A stretch of DNA of 64,000 nt from Arenicellales bacterium (GTDB taxonomy: Bacteria > Pseudomonadota > Gammaproteobacteria > Arenicellales > Poriferihabitantaceae), in NCBI GenBank assembly GCA_965231905.1, contig CBDDOO010000001.1:696235-760234 (forward strand), given 5' to 3'. Under the pieces are notes generated by a model. That model saw only the letters and a list, made by a program, of their open reading frames with translations, made no database searches and was not told the origin of the DNA. Within the stretch, counting starts at the first letter, position 1. Every line of letters begins with the position of its first letter. The translations under genes and the position numbers were made by a program. This document shows, piece by piece, positions 8,427 through 54,794 of this stretch.

Positions 8427-8503
8427 AGCGCCGCGACATATTAGCGCGAAAGCTGAAAGCCGGAATGATGCCACAGAGCTTATTATTACCAGCTATAGCG
8501 ATC

Positions 8504-8959
8504 ATGGCTAGGGGTGCGCGAGCAAACCGGCGCGGTCGAACGCTTGAGAATGCAATAAACGATCTTTTGAGTGAAGACTATCAGAGGGTGACTTCTGCCA
8601 GATTCTTTGCCCTTCGGGATTTGCGCCAGCCAATTTATGCCGAACAGTGCGTAATTGGCCGTGATATTTACAGCAAAAACAGGCGGGTAGACTTTATCCT
8701 GTATCATCCGCAACGCTGGCCTGATTGTCTGGTCATACAATGCAAGTGGCAAGCATCCAGTGGAAGCATTGAGGAGAAATATCCGTTTGAAGTGCTGTCG
8801 ATCCAGTTAAACGAGTTCCCTACCATCATTGTTCTGGATGGTGGCGGGTACACTAAAGGATCTGAAATGTGGCTGAAAGGGCAGGCAGGAAAGAACAAAC
8901 TGCTACACGTCTTGAGTCTGGGAGAAATAAGCCGTTTCCACAGTCAAGGCCGAATTTAG
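8504..8959 (+). CDS. putative restriction endonuclease (small PD-(D/E)XK-like protein, 151 aa)
   Basis: The ATG at 8504 overlaps the TAG of the restored methyltransferase frame. RVDFILYHP...CLVIQCKWQASSGSIEEKYPF fits a D...(E/Q)xK nuclease core. The ORF-track start at 8423 lies within the methyltransferase C-terminal coding region. Confidence 0.5.
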   Translation: MARGARANRRGRTLENAINDLLSEDYQRVTSARFFALRDLRQPIYAEQCVIGRDIYSKNRRVDFILYHPQRWPDCLVIQCKWQASSGSIEEKYPFEVLSIQLNEFPTIIVLDGGGYTKGSEMWLKGQAGKNKLLHVLSLGEISRFHSQGRI

Positions 8960-41344: not shown

Positions 41345-41367
41345 GCACTCCCTGCCGACAGACAGTT

Positions 41368-42081
41368 TCAAGCGACCAGCCTGTGAAACGAAGGAGCCAG
41401 ACTGCCCCGGTCATCAACCAGGTCGGCCACCGCCCGGTCGGCGACGATGACTCCATGATCAATAATGATGGCGCGATCACAGATCTGCTCCGCTTCTTCG
41501 AGTATATGGGTGGAAAGAATAATCGTCCGGCTCGTGGACAGCCTGGTGATCAGATTCCGGATCTGGTGTTTCTGTATCGGGTCCAGTCCATCGGTCGGCT
41601 CGTCCAGAATCAGCGCCGGCGGATCATGCAGCAGGGCCTGGGTCAGCCAGACCCGTTGCCTCCAGCCTTTGGAAAGATGGCGCAGGGGGGTGGACATCAC
41701 ACTGCCGAGATCCAGTTCCATACAACCCCGATCAATAGCCTGTTTTGCCCGATGGCCAGACATTCCCCGGGCTTCGCTGCAAAACGTGAGGAATTCGGTG
41801 GTGGTCAGGCGCCCGAATCCACCGGCCGCCTCGGGCAGATAACCGGTCATACTCTGGGCCTGACGCCGCTGACGCACCACGTCAAAACCGGCAATGGATG
41901 CGTTGCCTGAGGCGGGAACGCGGAAGCCGGCCAGCATCCGCATGGTCGAGGACTTGCCTGCGCCGTTGGCTCCCAGAAAGCCCACTGTCGAGCCTTTCGG
42001 AATGGAAAAACTGACTTCCGATACGGCGGTTTTACCGCCGTATCGGATCGTTAATTTGTCGGCGATGATCAGAGCGCTCAC
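41368..42081 (-). CDS. ABC transporter ATP-binding protein (ABC-2 / GldA-like)
   Basis: Walker A GANGAGKSS, signature LSKGWRQRV, Walker B LILDEPTDGLD. Confidence 0.88.
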   Translation of the reverse strand: MSALIIADKLTIRYGGKTAVSEVSFSIPKGSTVGFLGANGAGKSSTMRMLAGFRVPASGNASIAGFDVVRQRRQAQSMTGYLPEAAGGFGRLTTTEFLTFCSEARGMSGHRAKQAIDRGCMELDLGSVMSTPLRHLSKGWRQRVWLTQALLHDPPALILDEPTDGLDPIQKHQIRNLITRLSTSRTIILSTHILEEAEQICDRAIIIDHGVIVADRAVADLVDDRGSLAPSFHRLVA

Positions 42082-42273: not shown

Positions 42274-43161
42274 TTAATCCTGTTTGGTAAAAGCTTCGAG
42301 CAGCCCGGATGACTGATCGGTTTGCTCGCCCTTGAAACTCTTCATCGCTTCTTCATGCAATATCTCCAGGGCGGTCGCCTTGTATTGGTATGCTTCCCTG
42401 GAGTTCAGCATGTGGAAGTCCCGCGGACGCGGCAGGTCGATATTAATCGTGTGCCTGACCTGTGCCGGTCGGTTTGACAGGATGATCAGTTTATCGGCCA
42501 GAATGATCGCTTCTTCGATTTCTGACGTCACAAACAGGTTGGTGCGCCTGTTTTCTTCAAACAGTTGCAGGAAGAACTGTTGCATCAGTTCTCGTGTCAT
42601 CGCGTCGAGACCCCGGAACGGCTCATCCATGATCAGTACCTGGGGATGGTTGATAATGGCTCTCGCCAGTTCAGCCCGGCGCTGCATTCCGCCTGACAGT
42701 TGAATCTGGTATTTGTCCTTGAAATCACTCAGGCCGACCTTGTCGAGCAGCCGGATCGCTTCTTCATGCAGTTCTTTTTTCGGCATGTCGCCGCGTACTT
42801 TTGGTCCGAACACGATGTTCTGGTAGGTTGTCATCCAGGGCATCAGGGCGGTTTCCTGAAATACCACCATGCGATCATGCGACGGGCCTGTAATCCGGTT
42901 GCCATTCAGCAGCAGTTTGCCGGATTCCGGTTTCTCGAATCCGGCGACCAGGTTAACCAGGGTTGATTTTCCGCAGCCCGACGCGCCGACCACTGCGGTC
43001 AGTTTGCCCGGTTCGATTTCCATGCTGAGATTGAGTACGACATCGTGCCAATCCCACGATTCGCCGTAGCCCTTGCTGACGTTGCGCAGTTCGATGTGGC
43101 CGTTTTCCGGGCTGATCACGGAGGCGGCGTTCCTGGGTTCGGGTTTTGAATTCGCAGTCAT
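42274..43161 (-). CDS. ABC transporter ATP-binding protein (NitT/TauT family), copy 1
   Basis: GASGCGKST, LSGGMQRRA, LIMDEPFRGLD. The ATG at 43161 shares one base with the upstream permease stop. Confidence 0.88.
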   Translation of the reverse strand: MTANSKPEPRNAASVISPENGHIELRNVSKGYGESWDWHDVVLNLSMEIEPGKLTAVVGASGCGKSTLVNLVAGFEKPESGKLLLNGNRITGPSHDRMVVFQETALMPWMTTYQNIVFGPKVRGDMPKKELHEEAIRLLDKVGLSDFKDKYQIQLSGGMQRRAELARAIINHPQVLIMDEPFRGLDAMTRELMQQFFLQLFEENRRTNLFVTSEIEEAIILADKLIILSNRPAQVRHTINIDLPRPRDFHMLNSREAYQYKATALEILHEEAMKSFKGEQTDQSSGLLEAFTKQD

Positions 43162-43988
43162 CAGAACAGTCTTCGCCACGGCATGCAGTAATCACCCAGG
43201 GTGCGGATGGCGCTGCTCGACAGATATCCGGCAATGCCGATACTGATCATGCCGACCACGATCTGCTCCAGAGAACCGCCCATATAGGAATTCCAGATAA
43301 AGAAGCCGAGACCGCCGCCGCCCTGGGTGCCGCCGCCGGAAATCATTTCCGCCGCCACCACCACTTCCCAGGTGATACCCATGCCTACGGCGGCCCCGGT
43401 GAAGATCGAGGGCAGGGATGCCGGCAAGACGATTCGCCAGAACATGTCCCATCGGGTAGCGCCCATCGACTGGGCAGAGCGGAGCAGCCGGATGTCGATA
43501 CTCCTGGCGCCACCAAGCACATTGATTACAACCGTGAAGAACGCGCCGAGAAAGGTCACGAACGCGATTGATAATTCGTTGGTTGGCCAGAAGATCAGCG
43601 ATGCCGGTACCCATGCCAGTGGCGGGATCGGTCGCAGCATTTCAAATGGCGGGAAAAATATCTTCCGGAAGTAACGGTTGACAGCCATCAGCAGGCCGAG
43701 CGGGATACCCACCGCCATCGCGGCCAGAAATCCGAGCAAAACCCGTCTGAAACTCAAATACCAGCTTTCCCAGTAGCCAACCAGCGGAATAACTTCAGTC
43801 CAGGCGAGAAACACCGCTGTCGGTGGTGGGATCAGTCCGATAAACGGCAGCATCGTTCCAGACCAATCGTCCCATCGTGAACCCGTCTCCCACAGTATCA
43901 GCGCGATCATGACGGCTCTAATGCCGCGCCACAGCGAGAGATTCTGTCGCAGTTTCTGCCATCGTGTGCGTCGAACTGTGGTCATCAT
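43161..43988 (-). CDS. ABC transporter permease (NitT/TauT family), copy 1
   Basis: Binding-protein-dependent transport inner-membrane motif (SAQSMGATRWDMFWRIVLP). The ATG at 43988 is preceded by AGGAG. Confidence 0.85.
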   Translation of the reverse strand: MMTTVRRTRWQKLRQNLSLWRGIRAVMIALILWETGSRWDDWSGTMLPFIGLIPPPTAVFLAWTEVIPLVGYWESWYLSFRRVLLGFLAAMAVGIPLGLLMAVNRYFRKIFFPPFEMLRPIPPLAWVPASLIFWPTNELSIAFVTFLGAFFTVVINVLGGARSIDIRLLRSAQSMGATRWDMFWRIVLPASLPSIFTGAAVGMGITWEVVVAAEMISGGGTQGGGGLGFFIWNSYMGGSLEQIVVGMISIGIAGYLSSSAIRTLGDYCMPWRRLF

Positions 43989-44045
43989 CGCTCCTTCAGA
44001 AATATCCGGCTTCTGTTTCCATGTCAAGGTTACTGTGTCTGTTCA

Positions 44046-44879
44046 TCAGGCCAGTTCCCGCTCGCCCGCTTCGAACGCTTTCAGCGCCTCTTCATGCACG
44101 GCCTCATTCGCCTCATCAGCCAGCAAGCGGAATTGCTCCGAGGACAGAACATGGTAATCACGCGGGCGCGGTATCTCTACGTTGAGTATTTTTTTAACCC
44201 GGCACGGTCGGGTGGTCATGACCACCACCCGGTCACCGAGGAATATGGCTTCCTCCAGGTCATGGGTAATAAAAAACAGGGTGACTCTGGTGCGATCATA
44301 CATTTCAAGCAGGGTTTCGTGCATGATGGACTTGGTCAGTTCGTCCATGGCCCGGTACGGTTCATCCAGCAACAGGACTTTCGGATCATTGATCAGCGCC
44401 CGGACGATTTCCGCGCGCCGCGCCATCCCGGACGAGACTTCTCCGGGGTATTTTTCGCAAAAGTCACCCAGTCCGGCTTCAGCCAGCATGTCCCGCGCCT
44501 TCTCCCCGGCCTGCTTTTTGCTCAGCAATCCCTGTACGATCGGGCCATAAGCGACATTGTCAGACAGGGTTTTCCAGGGGAACAGGGCGCCATTCTGGAA
44601 CACTACCACACGGTCCGAGCCCTGGTCGGCGAGAGGCCTGGATGGGCCGCACAACAGTTCTCCGTCAAGATGGATTTCACCTGAGGTGATCGAATGAAAC
44701 CCCGCAATCGCGTTCAGCAGGGTGGTTTTTCCACAGCCACTCGGACCGACCACCATGCAGACTTCTCCTGCCGCGATTTCCAGCGAGCAGTCGTCCACCG
44801 CCATCACATTGACCCCTTCCGGATCGTAGATCTTGGTGACGCTGCGAATGCTTATTTCGCCTTTGCCTGTTTCGGTCAA
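44046..44879 (-). CDS. ABC transporter ATP-binding protein (NitT/TauT family), copy 2
   Basis: GPSGCGKTT, VSSGMARRA, LLLDEPYRAMD. TTG start implied. Confidence 0.85.
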   Translation of the reverse strand: MTETGKGEISIRSVTKIYDPEGVNVMAVDDCSLEIAAGEVCMVVGPSGCGKTTLLNAIAGFHSITSGEIHLDGELLCGPSRPLADQGSDRVVVFQNGALFPWKTLSDNVAYGPIVQGLLSKKQAGEKARDMLAEAGLGDFCEKYPGEVSSGMARRAEIVRALINDPKVLLLDEPYRAMDELTKSIMHETLLEMYDRTRVTLFFITHDLEEAIFLGDRVVVMTTRPCRVKKILNVEIPRPRDYHVLSSEQFRLLADEANEAVHEEALKAFEAGERELA

Positions 44880-44897
44880 GTCATTGTCCCATGGGTA

Positions 44898-45776
44898 TTA
44901 TCTGTTTTCCATAGCCAGCGCGCGGGTGCGCCACTGCATCATCCGGTTGCCGACCATTCGCACCATCACCGAAGTCAGCCAGCCCACAAAGCCGAGAGTA
45001 ATCATGCCGATCACCATTGGAACGGTGACATTATTCATGTAGGCAGCCACAATCAGATACCCCAGCCCATAGTCTCCGGAAACCATCTCGGCTGCAACCA
45101 GGGAAAACCAGGCGACCCCGATACTGATCTGCAAGCCGGTGAACATGAACGGCAGCGCTCCCGGAACCACCACGTTCCAGAAGATATGACGGGGTTTGGA
45201 ACCGAGACAGCCGGCGGCGCGGAAATAGGATTCATCAATGGAGTTGACACCGAGCAGGGTGTTCAATGTCGTGACGAACAGCGAAGCCAGCGTAGCCAGG
45301 AATATGACCGGCGCCTCAAACCCCTTGAACATCAGGATGGATAATGGCACCCATGCCAGAATCGGTATCGGCCGCAGGATTTCGAGGAGCGGGAATGTGT
45401 AGTCGCGGAACTTCCGCGACCAGCCCATGAACAGGCCAAGCGGCACCCCGATTCCGGTCGCAATCAAAAAGGCAAAGAAGATGCGGCGGCAACTGACATA
45501 AATGTGCTCGTAGAATTCCTCGGTGAATACCGATATTCCGAGGAACGGTTCCGGTGAGAACAACTCTTTCATCACCACCACCGGACCGGGCATTTTTTCG
45601 AATCGGGGAACCTCGAACGCTTCGCACAATATCCACCACAGCCCGATCCAGAGGCCAATTCCGAGAACCATCAGGTACGGGCCGGATGTTCCCATACGCT
45701 GGCGGAAGCGCACTAAAAAGATGGCTGCGTTACCGGGTGGGCGCCTGTTTGATTGTGCGGGTGCAGTGTTATCCAT
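44898..45776 (-). CDS. ABC transporter permease (NitT/TauT family), copy 2
   Basis: AAGCLGSKPRHIFWNVVVP loop and six TM segments. Confidence 0.85.
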   Translation of the reverse strand: MDNTAPAQSNRRPPGNAAIFLVRFRQRMGTSGPYLMVLGIGLWIGLWWILCEAFEVPRFEKMPGPVVVMKELFSPEPFLGISVFTEEFYEHIYVSCRRIFFAFLIATGIGVPLGLFMGWSRKFRDYTFPLLEILRPIPILAWVPLSILMFKGFEAPVIFLATLASLFVTTLNTLLGVNSIDESYFRAAGCLGSKPRHIFWNVVVPGALPFMFTGLQISIGVAWFSLVAAEMVSGDYGLGYLIVAAYMNNVTVPMVIGMITLGFVGWLTSVMVRMVGNRMMQWRTRALAMENR

Positions 45777-45810
45777 GTCTCGATTACTGATATTATGTTA
45801 CTACGGTATC

Positions 45811-45846
45811 GGCATCCCCGCCCAAATCCGTCAGGGCAGGGATGCC
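45811..45846 (-). terminator. intercistronic stem-loop after the binding-protein gene
   Basis: An 8-bp stem (GGCATCCC / GGGATGCC) sits in the 83-nt gap between the binding-protein and permease genes. Confidence 0.35.
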
Positions 45847-45859
45847 CGTGTGCCCGAAA

Positions 45860-46993
45860 TCAGTTCATTGAAGCCTTGATTACGGCAAGCGGACTGGTCA
45901 GACCCCGTTCTTCAAGAATCTGTCGAGCCACGCTGTCAGATACGCCGCCATCGCGGATAGTCGGCGCTGCAGCGGGTTTTTTCGGCAGGCTGTAAAGGAA
46001 CGCGGTGGCGTTGTCGAGCAAGGTCTGTACGCGCTCGGTCACGATGAAATCAAGTTGTACCTTGACTTCGCCGCCACCCTGGTTGGCAGGCCAGCCACCG
46101 AACATCGCATGCCACAGCACCGACTGGTCAATTTTCTCGGTCTGGGATTCGGCCAGCGCCGCAACTTCATCCGCATTGGCTGGATCTGCCATGAAAAGCT
46201 GTGCGTCCAGTTCAGCTTCCAGCCAGCCCTTGTGCACGTCCGGCCGTTGCGAGATCAGGTCGTTCAGCATGACCATGAACGCGCCATCCAGCGCATCGAA
46301 ATCTTCGCCACTGGCCGCGCGCCGGGCGATACCGGACATGACGATCTTGGATGCGGTGGGTTCCCAGATTGCCGCCGCGTCGAGTTTGCCGGCGCGGAAG
46401 TTGGTGGTAATGACCTCAATGTTCTGGTTCAGGTAACGCTCTGGAGTAATCCCCGCTTTCTGGAACGCCAGTTGGGCGAACCGGTCGGTACAGGCGCCAT
46501 GAGGGGCGGAGGTGATCTTGCCGTCCATCCACTTGACTGCTTCGCCGCCATTGGCGAATTCAGGCGCGTCGTTGCGTACCAGGAAAATGTTGCACTGTTG
46601 TTTGGATGTGCCCAGAGCCGCGACGATACGCATGTCTGTACCGCCCCGTTCCTTGATATTGCGGAAAGTCGAGGCAATCGCGGGCATGTCGCCCATGTAA
46701 CCGATGTGCTGCTTTTCGCCGGTCATGGCGTTGACGATAACCGAACCCTGTAACCCGATCTGAAACTCGACGGTTGAACCTTCCGGTAAATACTTTTTCC
46801 ATAATTGCTTACCGTTGTTGACTACTCCAGACCAGGATTCCGTGTAATAAGGCTGGTAACCCACGACCAGATCAACCTCCTCACCCGGGTTCCCGAAATC
46901 GACATCGGCTGACGCCATTTGTGACACGCCGGTTGCCAGTACACAGGCGGCTCCCAGCCTTGTTATTAAACTTGCATACGATTTTCTCATCAT
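45860..46993 (-). CDS. ABC transporter periplasmic substrate-binding protein (NMT1/TauA-like)
   Basis: Signal peptide MMRKSYASLITRLGAACVLATGVSQMASA. It lies 18 nt downstream of the reductase gene. It could be the MsmE equivalent (inference). Confidence 0.75.
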   Translation of the reverse strand: MMRKSYASLITRLGAACVLATGVSQMASADVDFGNPGEEVDLVVGYQPYYTESWSGVVNNGKQLWKKYLPEGSTVEFQIGLQGSVIVNAMTGEKQHIGYMGDMPAIASTFRNIKERGGTDMRIVAALGTSKQQCNIFLVRNDAPEFANGGEAVKWMDGKITSAPHGACTDRFAQLAFQKAGITPERYLNQNIEVITTNFRAGKLDAAAIWEPTASKIVMSGIARRAASGEDFDALDGAFMVMLNDLISQRPDVHKGWLEAELDAQLFMADPANADEVAALAESQTEKIDQSVLWHAMFGGWPANQGGGEVKVQLDFIVTERVQTLLDNATAFLYSLPKKPAAAPTIRDGGVSDSVARQILEERGLTSPLAVIKASMN

Positions 46994-47011: not shown

Positions 47012-48055
47012 TTAATTGAACTTGTCGTAGCGCACCATTTGCGCCGGTATCCGCAAATCCAGAATCAGGGGGCGGATGCAGGCATCCACCATCGGCTGTG
47101 GCCCGGCGATATAGACCATGGTATTGGCCGCTTCCGGCGTGATCGCGGCCAGAGCCGTGTCATGTACCAGCCCGTAGCGGGTAGGCATTGACTCGCCATC
47201 AGAGGAGGTCACGTTGCCGGACGCTTCATCGGATAGCACGACGTTGATCGACAAGGTGTCCGGATGGCGCGCCCGCATCGCTGACAGGCGATCTGCATAG
47301 AACATGTCGGCACGGGTCCTGACACCGAAAAACAAGCTGACCCTGTGTGTATCGAGGTAATCGGTCATTGAAGCCTTTTCGAGGATCGACATCAACCCCG
47401 CGATACCTGAGCCGCCGGCGATCAGAAAAAGGTCGTGTCCTTCATCGGTGTGAAAGGTTGCGCGTCCCAGCGGCCCGAACAATTCAACTTCGTCCCGGTC
47501 GCGCGCTTCATCGAAAGCCCACCCAGAAAAAGCGCCGTCCGGTTTTCTCTTGATGACGAACTCAAGGGTATCCGTCTGCGGTTCAAAATTAACCATTGAG
47601 TAGGCGCGGCGCCCGGATATTCCCGGAGCCTGGATGGCAAAAAACTGACCGGCATGGAACCGCGCCGGCCGGGGTAGCCTGACTTCAAAGCGGGCCACAT
47701 CCGCAGTCAGCCGACCCCAGTTTGAGGCGACGCCGATGTAATGGTCGGGGCGGAAGTCGTCATCGCGAAAAGGCTGGAGCCGGGCCGGGACGGTCAGGTT
47801 GCAGTCCGATTGCGCGGTGGCCTGGCACAACAGGAATTCCTTTCTCGCCGCCCGCAGGTTTTTCCGTCCGGGCGCCTCGGCCCAGCCCGGGTCCAGTTCG
47901 CCCTGATCCAGTCGCGCGCGACAGGTCCCACAGGTTCCGGTCGCGCATTCGTAGGGCAATGGAATGCCGGCTCGCAATCCGGCATACAACAGCTTTTCAT
48001 TGGCCAGAGCGTCAAATCGGTGAACCTGGTCCTTTTTTGCAATTTCGATCAGCAT
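47012..48055 (-). CDS. msmD: oxygenase reductase component (plant-type 2Fe-2S ferredoxin + FAD/NAD(P)-binding domains)
   Basis: CATGTCGTCRA cluster motif at the N-terminus, then FNR-like RAYS and GGSGIAG motifs. Fourth gene of the oxygenase set. Confidence 0.75.
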   Translation of the reverse strand: MLIEIAKKDQVHRFDALANEKLLYAGLRAGIPLPYECATGTCGTCRARLDQGELDPGWAEAPGRKNLRAARKEFLLCQATAQSDCNLTVPARLQPFRDDDFRPDHYIGVASNWGRLTADVARFEVRLPRPARFHAGQFFAIQAPGISGRRAYSMVNFEPQTDTLEFVIKRKPDGAFSGWAFDEARDRDEVELFGPLGRATFHTDEGHDLFLIAGGSGIAGLMSILEKASMTDYLDTHRVSLFFGVRTRADMFYADRLSAMRARHPDTLSINVVLSDEASGNVTSSDGESMPTRYGLVHDTALAAITPEAANTMVYIAGPQPMVDACIRPLILDLRIPAQMVRYDKFN

Positions 48056-48085
48056 GGCCGCGTCCAACTTGCTTGAAAATCCCGC

Positions 48086-48433
48086 TTAATCATCGTCTTC
48101 GTCATCAAACTCATATTCCAGTTCCTGCTCCAGGAAAACCAGGATCTGACCCTCTTCGTCTTTTATCGGGTACATCAGCAGGGGCTTTTCAGCCGGACCG
48201 CGCGGCTCTCCGGTTTTCATATCCCATTGCCAGAGGTGGCGGTCGCAGGTCAGGATCCCGTCCTGACACAGCCCCGAGTTTTCCAGGTATTCCTCCATGT
48301 GAGGACAGACCGGCGGATAAGCCCGATAGGTCTCGCCGATTTTGGCGATTACCAGTTCAATACCGTCAATCTTCACCGCTTTTAGCGCATGATCCGATAT
48401 GTCATCTGCCGCACAGGCAATTTTCCAGCTCAT
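48086..48433 (-). CDS. msmC: Rieske-type [2Fe-2S] ferredoxin component
   Basis: CPH-X17-CDRH motif. 115 aa with an acidic tail. Confidence 0.8.
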   Translation of the reverse strand: MSWKIACAADDISDHALKAVKIDGIELVIAKIGETYRAYPPVCPHMEEYLENSGLCQDGILTCDRHLWQWDMKTGEPRGPAEKPLLMYPIKDEEGQILVFLEQELEYEFDDEDDD

Positions 48434-48479: not shown

Positions 48480-49007
48480 TCAAATCGGCCAGTGCGAACC
48501 CTTGTCCAGCCGCCGCGTGTCCAGCCGCACCTCCCTTTCGGCAAATTTGATTTCGTCTTCTCCAATCAGGAAGCGATCATTGTAACGGCCGACCAGAAAC
48601 AGCCTTGATTCACCTGCGTCAACATGCGAGTTGATGCCGTCCAGTTGCGTCTGAAAAACCGTGAAAGAGGTTACCGCAGTAGCGGATTTGCCGTCATCGG
48701 CAATATCGACCCGGTACACCACGCCATGCCGTTTCAGGGGCGAGGTATCCGAGTTATGTTTCGGCAGCATCCCGGTCAATTTCGCCATGTAGTCCCGGTT
48801 GCCGCTGATATAGGTCATGTCGGCCTGGATCTCGGGACTGTATGCCCGGATCGCATACTCGAAGTTCTCAGCGCACAGATTCAGCCATGAGTCCCAGTCC
48901 AGGTCGTCCTGGAGCAGGCAGGTGGTGTAGATCAATTCCTTGATCTTCTCCCGGGTCAGGGAGTTGTCTGCGGGCATTGCCATTTTCTGGTTGGTCTTTT
49001 GATTCAT
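48480..49007 (-). CDS. msmB: ring-hydroxylating-oxygenase-type small (beta) subunit
   Basis: 175 aa with the length and pattern of the NTF2-like beta-subunit family. It starts 16 nt after the alpha subunit gene. Confidence 0.7.
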   Translation of the reverse strand: MNQKTNQKMAMPADNSLTREKIKELIYTTCLLQDDLDWDSWLNLCAENFEYAIRAYSPEIQADMTYISGNRDYMAKLTGMLPKHNSDTSPLKRHGVVYRVDIADDGKSATAVTSFTVFQTQLDGINSHVDAGESRLFLVGRYNDRFLIGEDEIKFAEREVRLDTRRLDKGSHWPI

Positions 49008-49023
49008 TGGTTACACTCCCGGA

Positions 49024-50304
49024 TTACATGCTCGCGCTGGCGCGTTGTGTGTTGTCCGCGACACTTTGCATCTTGTGAGCGGCAAAGTTCATATCCGGAT
49101 TGCCTGGCGATCGGTCCAGCCAGCGTCCCCATTCCTCATAATAGTGGCGCATGCCGTTTTCATCGTGGATAGTCTCGTTCTCATGCCGGCCGTGCAGGAT
49201 AGTCCGCTTTTCGGCGGAAGGGTGCATGCAGGCGCCCTGGGCGGTTACCGCGAGCAGGTCTTCATGCAGGTTGCGACCGAACGGCCCCCAGATCGAATTA
49301 TGATGGTCAATTCTGGTCTGGCGCTCGGCTGGCGTATCGCTGGCCAGGCCCAGCCCCCGAAACTCGATCATCACCCGGTCCGGTCCAAGCGGGGTCATCA
49401 GGTCGCAGCGCAGCGCCGAGCCGCGCAGGTTGAAATTGACTCCCGGGAACATGTCGATCATGTACCAGTGATTCGGCGGCAGGTGCGGGAAAGACAGCGC
49501 TTCACGCGATTCAAACCCTTCATACTGGTCATACTGAACCTCAAAACTGCCGACATTGATATGACCATTCCTGAAACCGCTGTTCTTGCGCGCGAAGTAG
49601 GCGTCGTTAAACCCGGTGATCCGGTTATGGTAATGCAGAAAGTCATGATAGAACTCACAGTTGGTATCATGCCACAATTTGTAATTGCAGGGGATGATCG
49701 CCTTGTGGTAGTGAAACACTTCCAGCGGCTCCTCGTTGAGTGACGGCGCCAGACAATCCAGAGCGCCGGCTGCGAATTCATCGACAGTCATGCTGATGTC
49801 GTCATCCAGGCTGACCCATACGAAACCACCGAACCAGACCTCACACTTGAGTTCCCGCAAGCCGACGTCCGCAGTGCACAGGCGATCCTGATAACCTTCT
49901 TCCCGGCGCGTGATATTGACACATCGGCCCCTCATGTCGAATTGCCAGGCGTGGAACATGCAGGTCATGGTTTTCGGCGTACCCGACGGGGCGCCGCGCT
50001 TGAAGCTGCCGGCCGGCCGGCGCTCGATCATGTTGCCGCGATGAGGGCATACATTCAGAAAGGCGCGAACCTTGAGGTCCTTGCCGCGTACCACGATTAC
50101 CGGCTCCCTGGCGATGGTCATGGTGCGAAAGTCATAGGCATTTTTCAATTCGGATTCATGGCAGACCGGAATCCAGGTTCTTTTCCAGATCTTTTCCAGT
50201 TCTTCCTCGAAGATGCGCTGGTCGGAATAGATTCTGCTGTCCACCCATTCACCGGGTTGCAGGTTCGGGGTTGCGGTCCATTGGGCATGATTTCTTGATG
50301 ACAT
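49024..50304 (-). CDS. msmA: Rieske oxygenase large (alpha) subunit with CXH-X26-CXXH spacing, candidate methanesulfonate monooxygenase hydroxylase
   Basis: The motif CPH-RGNMIERRPAGSFKRGAPSGTPKTMT-CMFH has 26 residues between the Cys-His pairs (counted). This unusual spacing was reported for MsmA. The four-component context fits. Confidence 0.7.
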   Translation of the reverse strand: MSSRNHAQWTATPNLQPGEWVDSRIYSDQRIFEEELEKIWKRTWIPVCHESELKNAYDFRTMTIAREPVIVVRGKDLKVRAFLNVCPHRGNMIERRPAGSFKRGAPSGTPKTMTCMFHAWQFDMRGRCVNITRREEGYQDRLCTADVGLRELKCEVWFGGFVWVSLDDDISMTVDEFAAGALDCLAPSLNEEPLEVFHYHKAIIPCNYKLWHDTNCEFYHDFLHYHNRITGFNDAYFARKNSGFRNGHINVGSFEVQYDQYEGFESREALSFPHLPPNHWYMIDMFPGVNFNLRGSALRCDLMTPLGPDRVMIEFRGLGLASDTPAERQTRIDHHNSIWGPFGRNLHEDLLAVTAQGACMHPSAEKRTILHGRHENETIHDENGMRHYYEEWGRWLDRSPGNPDMNFAAHKMQSVADNTQRASASM

Positions 50305-50361
50305 GTATGGTCTCCTGTGTTGACGAATAGGATTTTGATGATCATGAGCTGGTTGGCGGAA

Positions 50362-51252
50362 TCAGCCGGCCTGTTTCAGCCGGGATTCCCAGTTAACCTG
50401 TTTGGCGAACTTTTCCAGTTCTTCGGGTTTCATGTAGATAGTGTGTTCCGGGCCAGGGTAGATCCGTTCCCTGACTTCGTCCCGGTAGCGGATAAACACG
50501 TCTTCCATGATCGGAATCAGGTCGGTGTAGATTTTCGAGTGTCTCGGTACATGTTCCTCATACAGATGGAACAGGTCGGACGTAATGATATGCACCCCAT
50601 GCGCCTTGTTGCCGGCGCCCAGACTGATGACAGGCACCGGCAACACTTCCGTCAGGTATTGACACAATTCCTCGGAAGTGACTTCGCACATAATCGAGAA
50701 ACAGCCCGCATCCACCATGGCCCAGGCGTCATCGACCAGTTCTTTCGCCCGGTCAGCGGTTTTCCCCTGCGCGAAGAAGCCGCCCAGTTGTGGCATCCGC
50801 ATCGGCGTAATGCCGATGTGGCCCTGCACCGGAATACCGGCCTTCACAATCGCCTCGATATTTTTAGCGTGATGCTGGTTGCCTTCGCATTTCATCACCT
50901 CGGCATTGGCCTCGGAAACGAACCGGCCCGCGTTTTCAACTGCCTGGTCAGGAGAGACATGGAAGCTCCAGTAAGGCATATCCACCATCCGCAGGCCATA
51001 CTGGCTGCCACGGTCAATCGCTTTCGCCATCATCATGACTTCGTCGAAAGTCACCGTGACGGTTGACTTGTGTCCGAACAGAATCATGCCGCCGGTATCG
51101 GATACACACAGAATGTCGATTCCCAGGCGGTCTGCGATGACGGCGCTGCGGTAATCATAGATTGCCATTTGCACGATCTGGTCATCTTCGCGCATCTTTC
51201 GTTGCAGGTCTCTGATCGTGACCTTTTTTCTTCTCGTGGCCGCTTCCGACAT
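50362..51252 (-). CDS. 3-methyl-2-oxobutanoate hydroxymethyltransferase (PanB) family paralogue
   Basis: By eye it is collinear with E. coli PanB (AIYDY, VSDTGGM, DMPY, KCEG, GHIGITP, ISLGAG, YPGPEH). It is the first gene of the msm string, 57 nt upstream of msmA. Confidence 0.75.
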   Translation of the reverse strand: MSEAATRRKKVTIRDLQRKMREDDQIVQMAIYDYRSAVIADRLGIDILCVSDTGGMILFGHKSTVTVTFDEVMMMAKAIDRGSQYGLRMVDMPYWSFHVSPDQAVENAGRFVSEANAEVMKCEGNQHHAKNIEAIVKAGIPVQGHIGITPMRMPQLGGFFAQGKTADRAKELVDDAWAMVDAGCFSIMCEVTSEELCQYLTEVLPVPVISLGAGNKAHGVHIITSDLFHLYEEHVPRHSKIYTDLIPIMEDVFIRYRDEVRERIYPGPEHTIYMKPEELEKFAKQVNWESRLKQAG

Positions 51253-51295
51253 TATTGTCTCCCCGGTGTTTTAATTCGTGTTATAAAAATTTGTT

Positions 51296-51314
51296 GGGCA
51301 TGCAACATGCCATT
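51296..51314 (-). promoter_or_regulatory. perfect palindrome GGCATG-CAA-CATGCC upstream of the panB-like/msm operon
   Basis: It lies about 45-60 nt upstream of the panB-like ATG in an AT-rich 189-nt gap. On the coding strand it reads TGGCATGTTGCATGC (GG-N10-GC spacing), loosely like sigma54 -24/-12 elements. Confidence 0.25.
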
Positions 51315-51441
51315 GAATATGCAACCATATAATCAGGCAATGATTTGACTGTCAAAGAGCTTTTTCTTATGAATTGATAGATTACACCTTAATATATTCA
51401 TAAAACAGCTTGTCTGTCTATTATCCGTCGCCGGGGCATCG

Positions 51442-52191
51442 TCATGATCCCGCTATTTTGAACAGAATGAACAGGCCGACCAGAATCATCAGTATCGAGA
51501 CGCCTTTTTTCAGGTAATCGGTGGGTACGGCATGAGCGAGGCTGGCGCCCACGATTGACCCGCACGCCAGCGCCAGCGCAAGGCCGGCGCTCAACCTGAG
51601 GTCAATCTGCCCATACAGGGCATTCCCCAGGGTGGCCAGCAGGGAAATCGGGATCTGGATGACCTGGGACAAACCGATTGCGGTCAATATCGGTACCCGC
51701 AACCAGATCAGAACAGGTACCAGCAGCAGTGGTCCGCCGGTCCCGGTCAGCGCCGAACCGACGCCGGTAGCGAAGCCGATCACCAGCAGAGCGTTGCCCA
51801 GTGTTGCCGGTTTACGCCCGCTTTCGTGTTGCCTGTCGGCAAGAGTATGGATACCGGAAAAAAGAACAGCTGCGGCGATGCCGGCTTCGAGCGCAAGGGC
51901 CGGGACAAAGGGCAGCAAAAAGGCGCCGAGAAAAGCTCCCGGCAGGGCGCCCAGACAAACCCGGGCCGCCATGCCATGGTCAATCGTGCCATGTCGCGCA
52001 TAGATGACGGCCCCTACCGTGCCGGTCACGATGTAACTCAGATTGCAGGCCGGTATGGCGACATGGAGCGCCACGTCACCGAGGTACTTCAGCGCGGGTA
52101 CCAGCAGAACCCCGCCGATGCCGATACTACCGATCAGCGCGCCGATGAGGATGATGACGATAGCGAGTGACAGGCTGAACGGGAAAAACAT
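51442..52191 (-). CDS. TauE/SafE-family sulfite exporter-like membrane protein
   Basis: Glycine-rich polytopic protein (IGIGGVLLVPAL, GVGSALTGTGGPLLLVP). The ATG at 52191 is preferred to the longer ORF. Confidence 0.75.
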   Translation of the reverse strand: MFFPFSLSLAIVIILIGALIGSIGIGGVLLVPALKYLGDVALHVAIPACNLSYIVTGTVGAVIYARHGTIDHGMAARVCLGALPGAFLGAFLLPFVPALALEAGIAAAVLFSGIHTLADRQHESGRKPATLGNALLVIGFATGVGSALTGTGGPLLLVPVLIWLRVPILTAIGLSQVIQIPISLLATLGNALYGQIDLRLSAGLALALACGSIVGASLAHAVPTDYLKKGVSILMILVGLFILFKIAGS

Positions 52192-52326
52192 GTTGGCTGA
52201 CTTCGGTTCGGGTATCTGCACAATCGAGCGCCGGATCATGCCAAAGTTTGCGGTTCGATGATAGACTAGCGGGCAAGCCTCCATAAAGATCCTTGCGCCA
52301 TGCCCTGTACAAACCGGTAATCAGCC

Positions 52327-53244
52327 TTGTTTCTCAGACAGTTTCAATATCTGGTTGCTCTGGAACAGGAAGGCCACTTTGGCCGCGCTGCGGAAAAATG
52401 CCACGTTTCCCAGCCCAGTCTGTCCAGCGCGCTGAAAAGCCTCGAAGAAGAACTTGGTATTCCGATCATTCTCAGGCAGCACAAATTCCAGGGTTTTACC
52501 GAAGAAGGCAAGCGGGTGGTCAGTTGGGCAAAGCGGTTGCTGGCGGACCGGTCGGCGATGCTGGAAGAGTTGGCCATCATGCAGAAAGACCTGCATGGCC
52601 GACTCAGAATCGGCGCTACCCCGATGAGTTCACCCCTGTTTCCGACCGTTAGCCAGTTGTTCCAGAAGCGCCATCCGGGCTTGCAGATCGACATTCAGTT
52701 CATGGCGCTGGATCGGCTGGTACTGGGGCTGACCAACTTTGAGATTGATGTCGGCATCACCTATCTGGACGATCCATCCCTTGCGCGTTTTGTCGCCTTG
52801 CCCTTGTATGAAGAGCCTCTTTATCTGCTGCTTCCCGACAATGACTGGCTGGATGACAGTTCCACCATTTCATGGCAGGAAGCGGCTGCGCTGCCACTAT
52901 GCCTGCTTTCCAAATCAACCCGTGAACGGCGGGTGATGGATGACGCATTCACCAGTGTCGGCCGTCAGCCGACCCCGATCCTGGAATCCAATTCCATTTT
53001 CCAGCTCGCCTTCCATGCGATGGCGGGGGACCTGGCCACCATCGTACCGAAACGCTTTGCGCATTTGCCCAACACACGGCAGAAAATGCTGGTCAAGCCA
53101 AGCGTGGTGCAAACTCTCGGCCTGATCTGGGTCTACGGTAATCCGGTTTTGCCGATGGCCAGCGCGACCAGTACGCTGTTGCGCGAAGCGCTGGAATCCG
53201 GCTTGCTGGAAGAATTCAGCCTGGTCGGCAACAAGGGCGGCTGA
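52327..53244 (+). CDS. LysR-family transcriptional regulator
   Basis: The N-terminal HTH reads LRQFQYLVALEQEGHFGRAAEKCHVSQPSLSSALKSLEEELG. It is divergent from the TauE-like gene. TTG start implied. Confidence 0.88.
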   Translation: MFLRQFQYLVALEQEGHFGRAAEKCHVSQPSLSSALKSLEEELGIPIILRQHKFQGFTEEGKRVVSWAKRLLADRSAMLEELAIMQKDLHGRLRIGATPMSSPLFPTVSQLFQKRHPGLQIDIQFMALDRLVLGLTNFEIDVGITYLDDPSLARFVALPLYEEPLYLLLPDNDWLDDSSTISWQEAAALPLCLLSKSTRERRVMDDAFTSVGRQPTPILESNSIFQLAFHAMAGDLATIVPKRFAHLPNTRQKMLVKPSVVQTLGLIWVYGNPVLPMASATSTLLREALESGLLEEFSLVGNKGG

Positions 53245-53315: not shown

Positions 53316-54755
53316 CTACCCCCAGGGCAGTGAGAAGGTCTTGACGGTGGTGTAGCTTTTCATGGCTTCGATTACGCCTTCCTTGTAACCGAGGCCGGAA
53401 TCCTTGACGCCGCCGAATGGCGACATCTCGGTACGGTATCCGGGCACCTCGCGGATGTTGACGGTGCCGGTCATCAGTTCATTGACGAATCGGTTGATGT
53501 ATTCGAGGTTGTTGGTGCAGACCCCGCTGGAAAGTCCGAAAGCCGTCGAGTTTGCAACCCGGATGGCGTGATCGATGCCGGTTACCCGGATAATCGGAAT
53601 CGGCGGGCCAAAGGTTTCCTCGCGCACCAGCTCACAATCAAACGGAACGTGATCAAGTACTGTGGGCGAATAGACCGCGCCCTGGCGGTCGTTGCCGTAT
53701 AACAGCTTCGCGCCCTTGCCGATGGCGTCATTCACCCGCGCCTCGAACAGGAGCGCCGCCTGTTCGGTGATCACGGTACCGACATCGGTGTCGGGGTCCA
53801 CAGGGTCCCCGTATTTGAGCCGGGCGGCTTTTTCGGCCACCCGCTCCGCAAACTCATCGGCAATTGACTCGACCGCCAATATGCGTTTTACCGCGGTACA
53901 TCGTTGCCCGGAATTGCGGGTGGCGCCCTGCACCGCCATTTCCGCCGCCTCATCCAGGTCCGCGTCCTCCATGACAATCAATGGTGAATTGCCGCCGAGT
54001 TCCAGTACCGTGCGTTTGTAACCGGCGGTCGCGGCGATATATTTACCGACCGGAACACTGCCGGTGAAGGTGATCAGGTCGATATTCGGATTGGTGATCA
54101 TTTCGTCGCCGATATCGCCGGGCAGCCCGGTCACGACAGACAGCATCGGTGGCGGCAGTCCCGCCTCAAGCAGTACATCCGCCAGCGCCAGTGCGGTCAG
54201 CGGGGTCAGTTCGGTGGGCTTGGCCACCATACAGTTGTTGGTCGCAATCGCCGGAGCGATCTTGTGGGAGATCATGTTCAGCGGATGGTTGAAAGGCGTG
54301 ATCGCCGAGATGGCGGTCAATGGCTCACGCTGCGTGAAAATCTTTCTTTTCTTGCCGTGGGGGGTCAGGTCGCAGGAGAAAATTTCGCCGTCATCCAGAA
54401 TACACAACTGGCTGGTCAGATTGAAAACGTCACAGGCGCGTCCGACTTCATACAGACTGTCCCTTTTTGACAGGCCGCATTCGGCAGTGATCAGATCCGA
54501 GAACCGATCCTTTTGTGTAGCCAGCGATTGTGCGGTTTTCGCCAGGATCTGCTGGCGTTGATAGCGGCTCAGTTGTGGCCGGTAAGCGGCGGCGGCCGCA
54601 AATGCGTCCGCCACCTGTTCGCGGCTGGCGCGGGGAACCGTACCCACCACTTCGTCGGTAAAGGGGTTGATGACTTCAACCAATTTGCCCGTATCCCCAT
54701 CCACCAGCACTCCTGCAATACGCATTTTCCACTGGTTGGCGCTGGAAGTATTCAT
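53316..54755 (-). CDS. phnY: aldehyde dehydrogenase, GapN-like; candidate phosphonoacetaldehyde dehydrogenase
   Basis: ALDH motifs ELGGNSP and the catalytic [12 protein letters not shown] (GapN/PhnY-like). It lies immediately downstream of the phnA-like gene. Confidence 0.6.
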
Positions 54756-54794
54756 CAGGGACTCTCCTGTTCGGTCAGGGGCAAAAGTCGTCCG

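Follow-up and report, generated by a model that had tools for sequence, protein, structure and literature searches.

A divergent PanB-family gene at the head of the methanesulfonate monooxygenase genes: a putative accessory for passing the methanesulfonate-derived C1 unit to tetrahydrofolate

Among the major products of dimethyl sulfide oxidation in the atmosphere is methanesulfonate (MSA), whose breakdown by bacteria is usually drawn as one enzyme step followed by the "spontaneous" release of formaldehyde and sulfite. In the window analysed here (the whole 64-kb stretch of DNA from an Arenicellales bacterium), the genes for the MSA monooxygenase are preceded by one whose product resembles ketopantoate hydroxymethyltransferase (PanB), raising the question of what a PanB-family protein does at the front of an MSA-degrading gene cluster. 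The features of this island are the following:

38804..42081, minus strand: ABC2-type pair (237-aa ATPase and 855-aa membrane/auxiliary protein) that travels with the island
42274..46993, minus strand: msmEFGH-type sulfonate ABC importer, assigned from SsuA_fam / NMT1_2 for its binding protein and from the translations
42274-43179 and 44046-44879, minus strand: importer ATPases
43161-44027 and 44898-45776, minus strand: importer permeases
45860-46993, minus strand: importer binding protein (SsuA_fam / NMT1_2)
47012..48067, minus strand: msmD, reductase (Fer2, FAD and NAD domains)
48086..48433, minus strand: msmC, Rieske-type ferredoxin (Rieske domain)
48480..49007, minus strand: msmB, hydroxylase small subunit (SnoaL_4 / Ring_hydroxyl_B)
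49024..50304, minus strand: msmA, MSA monooxygenase hydroxylase large subunit (Rieske and Ring_hydroxyl_A domains; CXH-X26-CXXH motif)
50305..50361, minus strand: spacer between the PanB-like gene and msmA, 57 nt from stop to start, with an AGGAG ribosome-binding site 7 nt before the msmA ATG
50362..51252, minus strand: PanB-like gene (ATG at 51252, 296 aa), which opens the msm unit and is divergent within the ketopantoate hydroxymethyltransferase family
51253..51441, minus strand: AT-rich leader/promoter region (189 nt, 36.5% GC against 55% for the window)
51442..52284, minus strand: putative sulfite exporter of the TauE/SafE family (PF01925, E=1.4e-35), directly upstream of the PanB-like gene and its leader
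52327..53244, plus strand: divergent LysR-family regulator (HTH_1 and LysR_substrate domains)

The product of 49024-50304 is, judged by its motif, a genuine MsmA, since it carries at residue 86 the Rieske signature CPH-X26-CMFH. CXH-X26-CXXH is diagnostic of MsmA, the spacer being 16-18 residues in other oxygenases (PMC4433239), and the X26 spacer is found in 149 of 151 related loci. The window's order of large subunit, small subunit, ferredoxin, reductase and sulfonate-type importer is that of Table 1 and Fig. 1 of the same paper (PMC4433239). The importer gene order recurs, with Pfam labels, in loci L001-L007, where the msm transporter is also followed by the ABC2 pair (PF12679, PF09822, DUF7088).

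The sequence-only reading had described the neighbouring protein as collinear with PanB, and this description holds along its whole length. The protein matches Pfam PF02548 (Pantoate_transf) with E=5.1e-79 and 265.8 bits over model positions 1-258 of 259, where the gathering score is 28.7 bits, and the solved PanB structures 1OY0 and 1M3U align with it end to end (E=2.5e-45 and 4.2e-42), a resemblance far above chance. Its AlphaFold model (mean pLDDT 94.9) is predicted to form the PanB-type (beta/alpha)8 barrel of the isocitrate lyase/PEP mutase superfamily: the best 28 PDB matches to the model are all PanB, with isocitrate lyase/PEP mutase members next, and 1OY0 superimposes at a TM-score of 0.96 (target-normalised) and an rmsd of 1.6 A. 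A Pfam scan for homology to the formaldehyde-activating enzyme Fae returned PF02548 only. The protein is nonetheless a divergent family member and not a standard PanB, as had been proposed. Its identity is 31% to E. coli PanB and 29-31% to the solved structures, and it bears a C-terminal extension of ~25 aa with predicted helices at 276-285 and 289-295. It also falls below both NCBIfam cut-offs, the TIGR00222 equivalog (204.1 against 207.55 bits) and the NF001452 subfamily (245 against 272), and replaces residues at canonical positions. Other members of its clade score 197-210 and 242-252 bits, respectively, which puts the clade on both sides of the first cut-off and below the second.

Where these replacements fall suggests what has been kept and what has changed. 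Six pocket residues are strictly conserved in PanB, namely D46, D84, K112, E114, H136 and E181 (PMC13488298); counted on the E. coli sequence, the first is D45. All six catalytic and metal residues are retained, with D52, D91, K121, E123, H145 and E190 of the window protein corresponding to D45, D84, K112, E114, H136 and E181. With the fold and length also shared, Mg2+-dependent hydroxymethyl transfer involving methylene-THF (THF, tetrahydrofolate) is plausible. Conversely, at 16 positions where conservation among 56 canonical PanBs is 80% or higher, the msm-linked clade has different residues of its own, fixed within it to 62-100% (in 13 cases to 99% or above). These positions lie mostly in, or right after, the barrel beta-strands as predicted in the model. 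They touch all four PanB pocket motifs, changing LVGDS to CVSDT, HLGLTPQS to HIGITPMR, IPVIGIGAG to VPVISLGAG and DGQILVMHD to HGVHIITSD; the clade is invariant for G44S, S46T, Q142M, G201S and Q211V, at positions whose canonical residues are 84-96% conserved across the 56 PanBs. In the window protein, the altered pocket residues include S51, T53, N125, M151 and V220. These patterns argue for an enzyme whose substrate pocket was remodelled around the retained Mg2+ and general-base machinery of PanB. All Mg2+ and 2-oxoacid carboxylate ligands are present (S46 as T), and ordinary 2-oxoacid enolisation chemistry may also be retained.

The gene's position is equally distinctive. As first described, it lies on the same strand as msmA at a stop-to-start distance of exactly 57 nt, with no terminator-like site between the two genes. 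The AT-rich segment in front of it, previously noted as a putative promoter region, contains a -35 element TTGACA (51355-51350) within the palindrome TTGACAGTCAA, a 17-nt spacer and a -10 element TTATAT (51332-51327). This core is nearly invariant in the two closest relatives (L008 and L009), and conservation among these three close relatives is the basis on which TTGACA-N17-TTATAT is a candidate promoter; a consensus promoter scan gave a second, weaker site at 51420-51391 and no enrichment over shuffles. No Rfam element, THF or ZTP riboswitches included, reaches its gathering score in the window, with matches at chance level only around the PanB-like gene. The uninterrupted 57-nt gap and the conserved promoter-like core upstream place the gene at the head of the msm string, co-transcribed or at minimum co-located and co-oriented with msmABCD.

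We found this arrangement to recur widely, in line with the co-occurrence check that the first reading had called for. Of 80 species-level genome loci found via the PanB-like protein, 64 have msmA within the retrieved sequence. In 58 it is no more than 600 nt downstream on the same strand; it follows an inserted formate-THF ligase gene in two, sits elsewhere in the locus in four, and is missing from the available flank (at least 3 kb on each side) in 12. In the reverse direction, 18 of 80 metagenome loci found via MsmA were informative, with 1.5 kb or more of sequence upstream and 9 kb or more downstream, and 14 of these carry the PanB-like gene, the other four having none nearby. Across many genomes the gene's tie to msmA is thus specific and runs in both directions; the four msmA loci lacking it and the 12 of 80 genomes lacking a nearby msmA show that it is neither strictly required for msmA nor confined to it.

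The clade to which the gene belongs is rare and tightly conserved, occurring in 267 of ~185,000 species representatives with identities of 74-97% across Alpha- and Gammaproteobacteria. A library clustered at 50% identity contains one full-length cluster (77%); the matches after it reach 47% and 44%, and canonical PanB stays at or below 40%. Measured against the window over 85 loci, the PanB-like protein has a median identity of 84%, compared with 73 for MsmA, 61 for LysR, 60 for MsmB, 52 for MsmC, 47 for TauE and 45 for MsmD, and in 74 of the 85 it is better conserved than MsmA. By this measure no other protein of the island evolves as slowly. Between the PanB-like protein and MsmA, identity to the window is uncorrelated (Spearman rho 0.08), which means that simple inheritance of the pair as a single block does not hold. 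Complete genomes with the gene include OY761989.1, OZ243941.1, NZ_CP159830.1 and CP179198.1, and public records name the proteins of the clade PanB. PLSDB yielded no plasmid copy, all 649 matches being ordinary panB at less than 60% identity. Sister-clade proteins (P0130 and the Arthrobacter protein P0278) are 41-45% identical to the window protein, P0130 reaching 47% in the clustered-library search, and their genes adjoin TauE, MTHFR, PurU and folate-synthesis genes. They were considered as a guide to the chemistry of the msm-linked clade and set aside, as both have lost D84 and K112.

Further neighbours of the PanB-like gene handle sulfite or folate-bound C1 units. A TauE gene lies within 2.5 kb of it in 46 of 72 genome loci, loci without msmA included, and 58 of the 72 have a LysR homologue within 4 kb. 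In 28 of the 72, the gene immediately upstream codes for a GcvT-like folate-binding protein, a stand-alone protein of 333 aa whose best matches are GcvT, SoxA, Tdm and DmdA models at scores far under their cut-offs; soil-type loci such as L103 and L109 show the order LysR-TauE-GcvT-PanB-like. The GcvT-like gene is absent from the 64-kb window, as from most marine loci, and the window holds no gene of THF-linked C1 metabolism. Elsewhere, neighbours include MTHFR (L013), FolD (L052), a formate-THF ligase inserted after the PanB-like gene and ahead of msmA (L035, L037 and L132, the last adding a FocA-like formate channel) and a SoxC-like sulfite dehydrogenase (L052, L085 and L109). Loci in which msmA is not next to the gene have as its neighbours TauE, the SoxC-like sulfite dehydrogenase, the GcvT-like folate protein, MTHFR, FolD or formate-THF ligase. 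A clade member from a Burkholderiales MAG adjoins TauE, GcvT, a DAO oxidase and a sulfonate-type binding protein.

The reading that we favour, with roughly even confidence and from sequence and genomic context, is that the gene encodes a neofunctionalised PanB-family enzyme, a dedicated accessory of MSA catabolism that putatively transfers the MSA-derived C1 unit to THF. MsmABCD would hydroxylate MSA to hydroxymethanesulfonate (HOCH2-SO3-), the adduct of formaldehyde with bisulfite. Canonical PanB works in a C1-donating direction when ketopantoate gives up its hydroxymethyl group to THF, and the PanB-like enzyme would run PanB chemistry the same way, passing the hydroxymethyl or formaldehyde unit to THF and yielding 5,10-methylene-THF and free sulfite. 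Its substrate could be the adduct itself or free formaldehyde, possibly via a bound 2-oxoacid carrier. Sulfite would then exit through TauE, or in other genomes be oxidised by SoxCD-type enzymes, and the C1 unit would continue through FolD, formate-THF ligase, PurU or MTHFR. More tentatively, and at lower confidence than for this broader role, the msm-linked clade might be a hydroxymethanesulfonate:THF hydroxymethyltransferase, a THF-dependent "formaldehyde-activating" enzyme that splits the MsmABCD-made adduct into 5,10-methylene-THF and sulfite. The hydroxyl pKa of the adduct was reportedly placed near 11.7 by Sorensen and Andersen in 1970. The adduct is thermodynamically favoured (Kd ~2e-4 M above the pKa of bisulfite) and decays only via its alkoxide form, at ~43 s-1 (PMC6459274). 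From this rate and pKa, we infer a half-life of minutes for the adduct at cytoplasmic pH. MsmA may also release formaldehyde and sulfite directly, which would count against the reading favoured here. Formaldehyde's spontaneous condensation with THF is too slow in vivo for growth (~24-day doubling), and PanB has been named as a candidate promiscuous catalyst of this very reaction (He et al. 2020, PMC7073904). The earlier suggestion that formaldehyde is channelled either into the THF pool or onto a 2-oxoacid is therefore sustained in part: the recurrent THF-C1 and sulfite neighbours fit the THF pool, and the acceptor may be either THF or a 2-oxoacid.

The 2-oxoacid alternative would have the enzyme run PanB's forward chemistry on a different 2-oxoacid, fixing or detoxifying the MSA-derived C1 as a 4-hydroxy-2-oxoacid, with either free formaldehyde (THF-independently) or methylene-THF made by the GcvT-like protein as C1 donor. 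Conservation of every Mg2+ and 2-oxoacid ligand would suit this, altered pocket residues are what a different 2-oxoacid would lead one to expect, some PanB variants are reported, in work cited in PMC7073904, to condense formaldehyde with 2-oxoacids without THF, and in one locus lacking msmA (L057) the gene adjoins a class-III aminotransferase. Over ~170 loci, however, no hydroxy-oxoacid-processing neighbour (reductase, aminotransferase or kinase) recurs, the recurrent ones being THF-oxidation and sulfite genes, and a methylene-THF supply from the GcvT-like protein cannot be general, given the absence of its gene from the window and most marine loci; we consider such an aldol role unlikely. A role in handling sulfite or another sulfonate, and not the C1 unit of MSA, is suggested by the company that TauE keeps with the gene where msmA is not nearby (L062, L086), with sister-clade proteins (L168, L170) and with the clade member adjoining a DAO-type oxidase (L171). 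The enzyme might accordingly cleave another hydroxyalkyl- or oxo-sulfonate, or the carbonyl-bisulfite adduct of a cellular 2-oxoacid, its link to msm being secondary to that with TauE. We find this quite improbable, as msmA adjacency is by far the commonest context (58 of 80) and the recurrent THF-enzyme neighbours imply that a C1 unit is handled.

Least credible, and in our view very improbable, is that the protein is an ordinary PanB making ketopantoate for pantothenate and CoA, next to msmA for historical or regulatory reasons. It is a full-length homologue with complete catalytic residues, some clade members just clear the TIGR00222 cut-off (209.8 and 208.0 bits), the PanB name is attached to clade members in public records, and the window has no second panB; a tblastn search with E. 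coli PanB found none either in the window or in loci L001-L087, and locus L170 holds two PanB-family genes, both divergent. Against this stand the window protein's scores under both NCBIfam cut-offs and its 16 replaced canonical positions, and a genomic setting unlike that of a housekeeping gene. Neither the window (52 ORFs, of which 40 are Pfam-annotated, four labelled via synteny with Pfam-labelled L007 and eight unlabelled) nor the Pfam-labelled loci L001-L007 contain panC, panD, panE or folK. Identities of 81-97% between bacterial classes are not those of a vertically inherited housekeeping gene, the gene's presence in so few species representatives (267 of ~185,000) does not suit one, and it is linked reciprocally to msmA and also to TauE and THF genes.

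Compared with known systems, the protein thus shares with PanB (EC 2.1.2.11; E. coli 1M3U, M. tuberculosis 1OY0; PF02548) its fold, length, end-to-end alignment and six residues, and differs in its low identity, C-terminal extension, extreme cross-class conservation and altered pocket motifs, as well as in a context of msm, TauE and THF-C1 genes instead of panC, panD and folK. The proposed role resembles that of the tetrahydromethanopterin-dependent Fae, which loads formaldehyde onto a pterin C1 carrier beside a formaldehyde-producing oxidation, but there is no kinship in sequence or fold, and the carrier would be THF, not H4MPT. The GcvT-type folate domains of sarcosine oxidase SoxA, TMAO demethylase Tdm and DmdA follow the same logic of a THF-binding protein beside a releaser of formaldehyde-level carbon; they belong to another fold and family, and here the PanB-like gene is the constant member whereas the GcvT-like gene is absent in the window.

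The gene had been taken not to be a described part of the pathway, which needs correcting. Table 1 of Henriques & De Marco 2015 (PMC4433239) has, beside the msm genes in Filomicrobium strain Y, one ORF annotated [quoted passage not shown] and another annotated "glycine cleavage T protein"; the PanB-type ORF receives one sentence and no analysis there. That ORF (3640-4548 of KM879220) is very probably an orthologue of the PanB-like gene, given its annotation and its shared neighbours (LysR, TauE/SafE, GcvT, the ABC2 pair, msmEFGH and msmABCD). The two arrangements differ in that the Filomicrobium gene lies within a TauE-GcvT-PanB-SoxCD block apart from msmA, whereas in the window it stands at the front of msmABCD and GcvT is missing. 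A literature search for the gene as a named msm component, covering few subscription-journal papers, gave this one mention, as an unnamed neighbouring ORF.

A protein at the head of the msm genes that is more conserved than the monooxygenase itself, across many marine and soil species, suggests an unrecognised enzymatic step of product handling in the MSA pathway. The PanB label in public records may also falsely imply pantothenate prototrophy when the metabolism of marine oligotrophs and sponge symbionts is reconstructed. Fae has no known counterpart specific to THF (PMC7073904), and THF loading by the PanB-like enzyme, if true, would answer the question in C1 metabolism that this gap and the slow spontaneous condensation leave open (PMC7073904). 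The enzyme would then be the first known in nature to place carbon of the formaldehyde level directly on THF; it would also offer synthetic methylotrophy a ready-made part and supply a missing, widespread step in the turnover of MSA in sea and soil.

The gene at 50362-51252 encodes a 296-aa protein that covers 258 of the 259 model positions of ketopantoate hydroxymethyltransferase (PF02548, Pfam profile search, E=5.1e-79) and aligns from one end to the other with the PanB structures solved for M. tuberculosis and E. coli. The best 28 PDB matches of its AlphaFold model (mean pLDDT 94.9, input alignment of 55 sequences) are all PanB (1OY0: TM 0.96, rmsd 1.6 Å), followed in the ranking by other members of the isocitrate lyase/PEP mutase superfamily. 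Its stop codon lies 57 nt from the start of msmA on the same strand, with AGGAG as the msmA ribosome-binding site, so placing it at the head of the methanesulfonate (MSA) monooxygenase (msm) genes. Judged from its sequence, this neighbor is a real MsmA, since it features Rieske and Ring_hydroxyl_A domains and the CXH-X26-CXXH motif diagnostic of the protein (PMC4433239), and since msmB, msmC and msmD are next in line. The sequence-only reading had described the gene and its setting correctly (PanB match, 57-nt gap, AT-rich upstream region); we add only the strand, minus throughout.

Features of the window around and beyond the PanB-like gene
50362-51252, minus: PanB-like gene
downstream, minus, in order: msmA, msmB, msmC, msmD, five-gene sulfonate-type ABC importer, ABC2-type pair
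42274-43179, minus, after the msmH-type permease: second ABC ATPase, 301 aa
38804-42081, minus, after the importer: the ABC2-type pair, a 237-aa ATPase and an 855-aa protein (ABC2_membrane, DUF7088 and ABC_transp_aux domains)
upstream, same strand: TauE/SafE sulfite-exporter homolog (TauE)
upstream, divergent: LysR regulator
53316-56114, minus, directly past the LysR gene: phosphonoacetaldehyde dehydrogenase (TIGR03250, 764 bits) and phosphonoacetate hydrolase PhnA (TIGR02335, 526 bits)
6715-8959, plus: IS1595-family transposase, then Dam-type (D12) adenine methyltransferase and PD-(D/E)XK/DpnII-like nuclease, a small mobile restriction-modification cassette

The msm importer is usually drawn with four genes; the second ATPase, likewise present in L001-L007 (loci carrying relatives of the PanB-like protein or MsmA), brings it to five (E, F, G, H and the extra ATPase). 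The ABC2-type pair recurs in L001-L007 and is listed in the Filomicrobium Y gene table, so it seems to belong to the MSA island as a constant component. A phosphonate-catabolic pair adjoins this sulfonate island, and the LysR regulator probably belongs to msm, because its homologs accompany TauE and msm in loci devoid of phn genes.

The 189 nt ahead of the PanB-like gene have a GC content of 36.5%, versus 55% window-wide, and contain a putative promoter, TTGACA-N17-TTATAT, called from three close relatives and near-invariant in the two closest ones. No terminator-like site was found between the PanB-like gene and msmA. A perfect palindrome, TTGACAGTCAA (51345-51355, minus), overlaps the -35 hexamer of this putative promoter; it is kept in relatives and is a candidate operator, with the LysR protein perhaps as its binder. 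The gap between TauE and the leader is ~46 nt longer in the two closest relatives (51420-51441 versus L008:9780-9830 and L009), where the extra stretch, absent from the window, includes a GC-rich hairpin (CCCCGG..CCGGGG); either the window has lost a terminator/REP-like element by deletion or the relatives have gained it by insertion.

At the sequence level the protein departs clearly from canonical PanB. It is 31% identical to the E. coli enzyme and scores under both NCBIfam PanB cut-offs (204.1 versus 207.55 and 245 versus 272), while other members of its clade, the tight group of its closest relatives, score on either side of the first cut-off and under the second. Among 1.84 billion representatives at 50% identity, one full-length cluster holds the family (representative 77% identical); the next matches are at 47% and 44%, and canonical PanBs at 40% or less. 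Comparison of 56 canonical PanBs with 74 clade sequences, using the pocket residues and motifs defined in PMC13488298, revealed retention of all six pocket residues (D45, D84, K112, E114, H136 and E181, E. coli numbering), as well as 16 positions with conservation of 80% or more among the canonical PanBs where the clade has a different residue at or near fixation (62-100%, and at least 99% in 13 of the 16): T23A, L42C, G44S, S46T, M65V, V72I, F87Y, Y90F, A110V, V111M, G116N, Q142M, P184S, G201S, Q211V and G220H. These replacements touch each of the four pocket motifs of the E. coli structure, and the majority map, in the predicted model, within or right after the barrel β-strands, that is, to the catalytic face; several introduce bulkier residues into the pocket, and the clade further carries a C-terminal extension of ~25 residues, predicted to be helical. 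Overall, the pocket is remodeled while family, fold and catalytic residues stay those of PanB.

The gene and msmA are associated reciprocally. Co-occurrence across genomes, a check that the sequence-only reading had suggested, holds among loci anchored on the PanB-like gene (below) and in the reverse direction, where an independent set of 80 MsmA-anchored JGI metagenome loci has the PanB-like gene in 35, and in 14 of the 18 whose flanks reach 1.5 kb or more upstream and 9 kb or more downstream (none in the other 4).

Position of msmA in PanB-like-anchored loci from 80 species (absence calls depend on the flank present on the contig)
within 600 nt downstream, same strand: 58
downstream beyond an intervening formate-THF (tetrahydrofolate) ligase gene: 2
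elsewhere in the locus: 4
undecided, short contig: 4
no msmA, flanks of 3 kb or more on both sides: 12

Two layouts recur: a marine one, as in the window (LysR / TauE-(GcvT)-PanB-like-msmABCD-EFGH), and a soil-type one (msmEFGH <-> msmABCD ... LysR-TauE-GcvT-PanB-like-(second TauE or SoxC-like)), which agrees with the Filomicrobium strain Y gene table.

A GTDB scan with one genome per species returned relatives in 267 species, the best 80 of which are 81-97% identical to the window protein and span Gammaproteobacteria (Arenicellales, Ca. Poriferihabitaceae, Granulosicoccaceae, Ca. Njordibacter, Acidiferrobacterales, SUP05) and Alphaproteobacteria (Hyphomicrobiales, Rhodospirillales, Kiloniellaceae), with the caveat that loci come mostly from MAGs and metagenomes and certain taxonomic labels are doubtful. 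The nearest, at 97%, are one Arenicellales and one Poriferihabitaceae MAG with the gene order of the window, which is therefore likely to derive from this group. Of the island's proteins the PanB-like one evolves most slowly: over 85 loci its median identity to the window is 84%, versus 73 for MsmA, 60 for MsmB, 52 for MsmC, 45 for MsmD, 47 for TauE and 61 for LysR. Its divergence is uncorrelated with MsmA divergence (rho 0.08); L010, L017, L019 and L022, for instance, combine a PanB-like protein at 89-91% with MsmA at 65-67%. The pairing has therefore persisted with MsmA partners of different lineages and was not passed on as a single frozen block.

MAGs labeled Polaribacter, Crocinitomicaceae, Deltaproteobacteria and Acidimicrobiia (L028, L035, L037, L087) contain near-identical PanB-like/msm loci, at 82-87% identity to the window, through mis-binning or else through a recent lateral transfer of the island. 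The sponge-associated MAG STY4_bin_4 holds two copies (L015, L020), both at 88%, each preceded by TauE and LysR and followed immediately by msmA, which in L020 is truncated where the contig stops.

Genes for THF-linked C1 metabolism and sulfite handling recur as neighbors. Of 72 loci, 46 have TauE no more than 2.5 kb away and 58 have LysR no more than 4 kb away; in 28 the gene directly upstream is a stand-alone GcvT-like one (333 aa), absent from the 64-kb window, whose product comprises the folate-binding part only and best matches the GcvT, SoxA, TMAO demethylase and DmdA models, all far under cut-off. A Burkholderiales MAG clade member, 70% identical, sits beside TauE, GcvT, a DAO-family oxidase and a sulfonate-type binding protein.

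Neighbors of the PanB-like gene where msmA is not adjacent
L013: MTHFR and GcvT-like gene
L052: FolD and SoxC-like sulfite dehydrogenase
L085: SoxC-like and cytochrome c
L062, L086: TauE
L132: formate-THF ligase, with a FocA-like formate channel and TauE just upstream

The formate-THF ligase gene lies between the PanB-like gene and msmA at L035:1210-2877, L037:10953-12620 and L132:8208-9875 (555 aa each; Pfam-confirmed in L035, assigned by equal length and position in L037 and L132).

Among distant PanB-like proteins (41-45% identical), one has a TauE neighbor (L168), and a cluster in Arthrobacter mangrovi (L170, BRVS01000027.1, 1608-16439) holds two very divergent PanB-family genes without canonical metal ligands (D45N/D84H in one, D84A/K112S in the other) alongside TauE, a PabB-like gene, FolE, MTHFR, PurU, ThyA, an aldehyde dehydrogenase and two DUF202 genes. 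As D84 and K112 are lost, these proteins serve as context only; the L170 cluster suggests that the PanB scaffold is used more widely in folate-linked C1 metabolism. At L169:2148-3548, PanB-like P0133 (44% identical) lies ~4.5 kb from a gene of the SBP56 family, which includes methanethiol oxidase, another enzyme releasing formaldehyde; this proximity may be coincidence.

In the PanB reaction a hydroxymethyl group moves reversibly between a Mg2+-stabilized carbanion equivalent and THF, and MSA hydroxylation gives hydroxymethanesulfonate, the formaldehyde-bisulfite adduct, with a hydroxyl pKa near 11.7. The adduct has a dissociation constant of ~2e-4 M or lower and decays via its alkoxide only, at ~43 s-1 (PMC6459274). 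Pairing rate and pKa, literature chemical constants rather than in-cell values, gives a half-life of minutes at pH 7-7.5, which is slow for a growth substrate. Condensation of formaldehyde with THF in vivo is likewise too slow for catabolic or assimilatory flux, no THF-specific formaldehyde-activating enzyme is known, and PanB has been proposed as a possible promiscuous catalyst via a ketopantoate shuttle (PMC7073904). PanB reversibility and the slowness of both steps make THF coupling attractive, and we give roughly even credence to a putative THF-linked capture of the MSA-derived C1 unit by the PanB-like enzyme. Its specific version, a putative formaldehyde-activating enzyme acting on hydroxymethanesulfonate and THF, is more tentative: a general base (the E181/H136 equivalents) and a Lewis-acid metal would deprotonate the hydroxyl of the adduct, whereupon sulfite would be expelled and the C1 unit handed to THF. 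Such a mechanism would account for the company of both TauE and THF enzymes, for the altered pocket with its several bulkier residues, and for the strong selection on the gene.

A hydroxymethylating aldolase using another 2-oxoacid would be consistent with the retained 2-oxoacid ligands, but is unlikely, as the downstream enzymes do not recur among the neighbors, and a primary link to sulfite or another sulfonate appears improbable. That the gene is simply an ordinary PanB is very unlikely in view of sub-threshold NCBIfam scores, replaced pocket motifs, gene context, phyletic pattern and conservation across bacterial classes.

The sequence-only reading did not recognize the gene as a described part of the pathway. 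Its existence beside msm is in fact already known, as Henriques & De Marco 2015 (PMC4433239) tabled PanB-like and GcvT genes as extra ORFs of the Filomicrobium msm region, but under the labels 'C1-moiety transfer' and 'methylotrophic metabolism' and with no further analysis. Later msm surveys do not discuss it, and the full-text literature searched, with subscription journals mostly outside, holds no other mention of the gene; its distinctness from PanB, breadth, conservation and specific role appear in none of it. The protein is probably a neofunctionalized PanB-family enzyme with a putative role in a known pathway.
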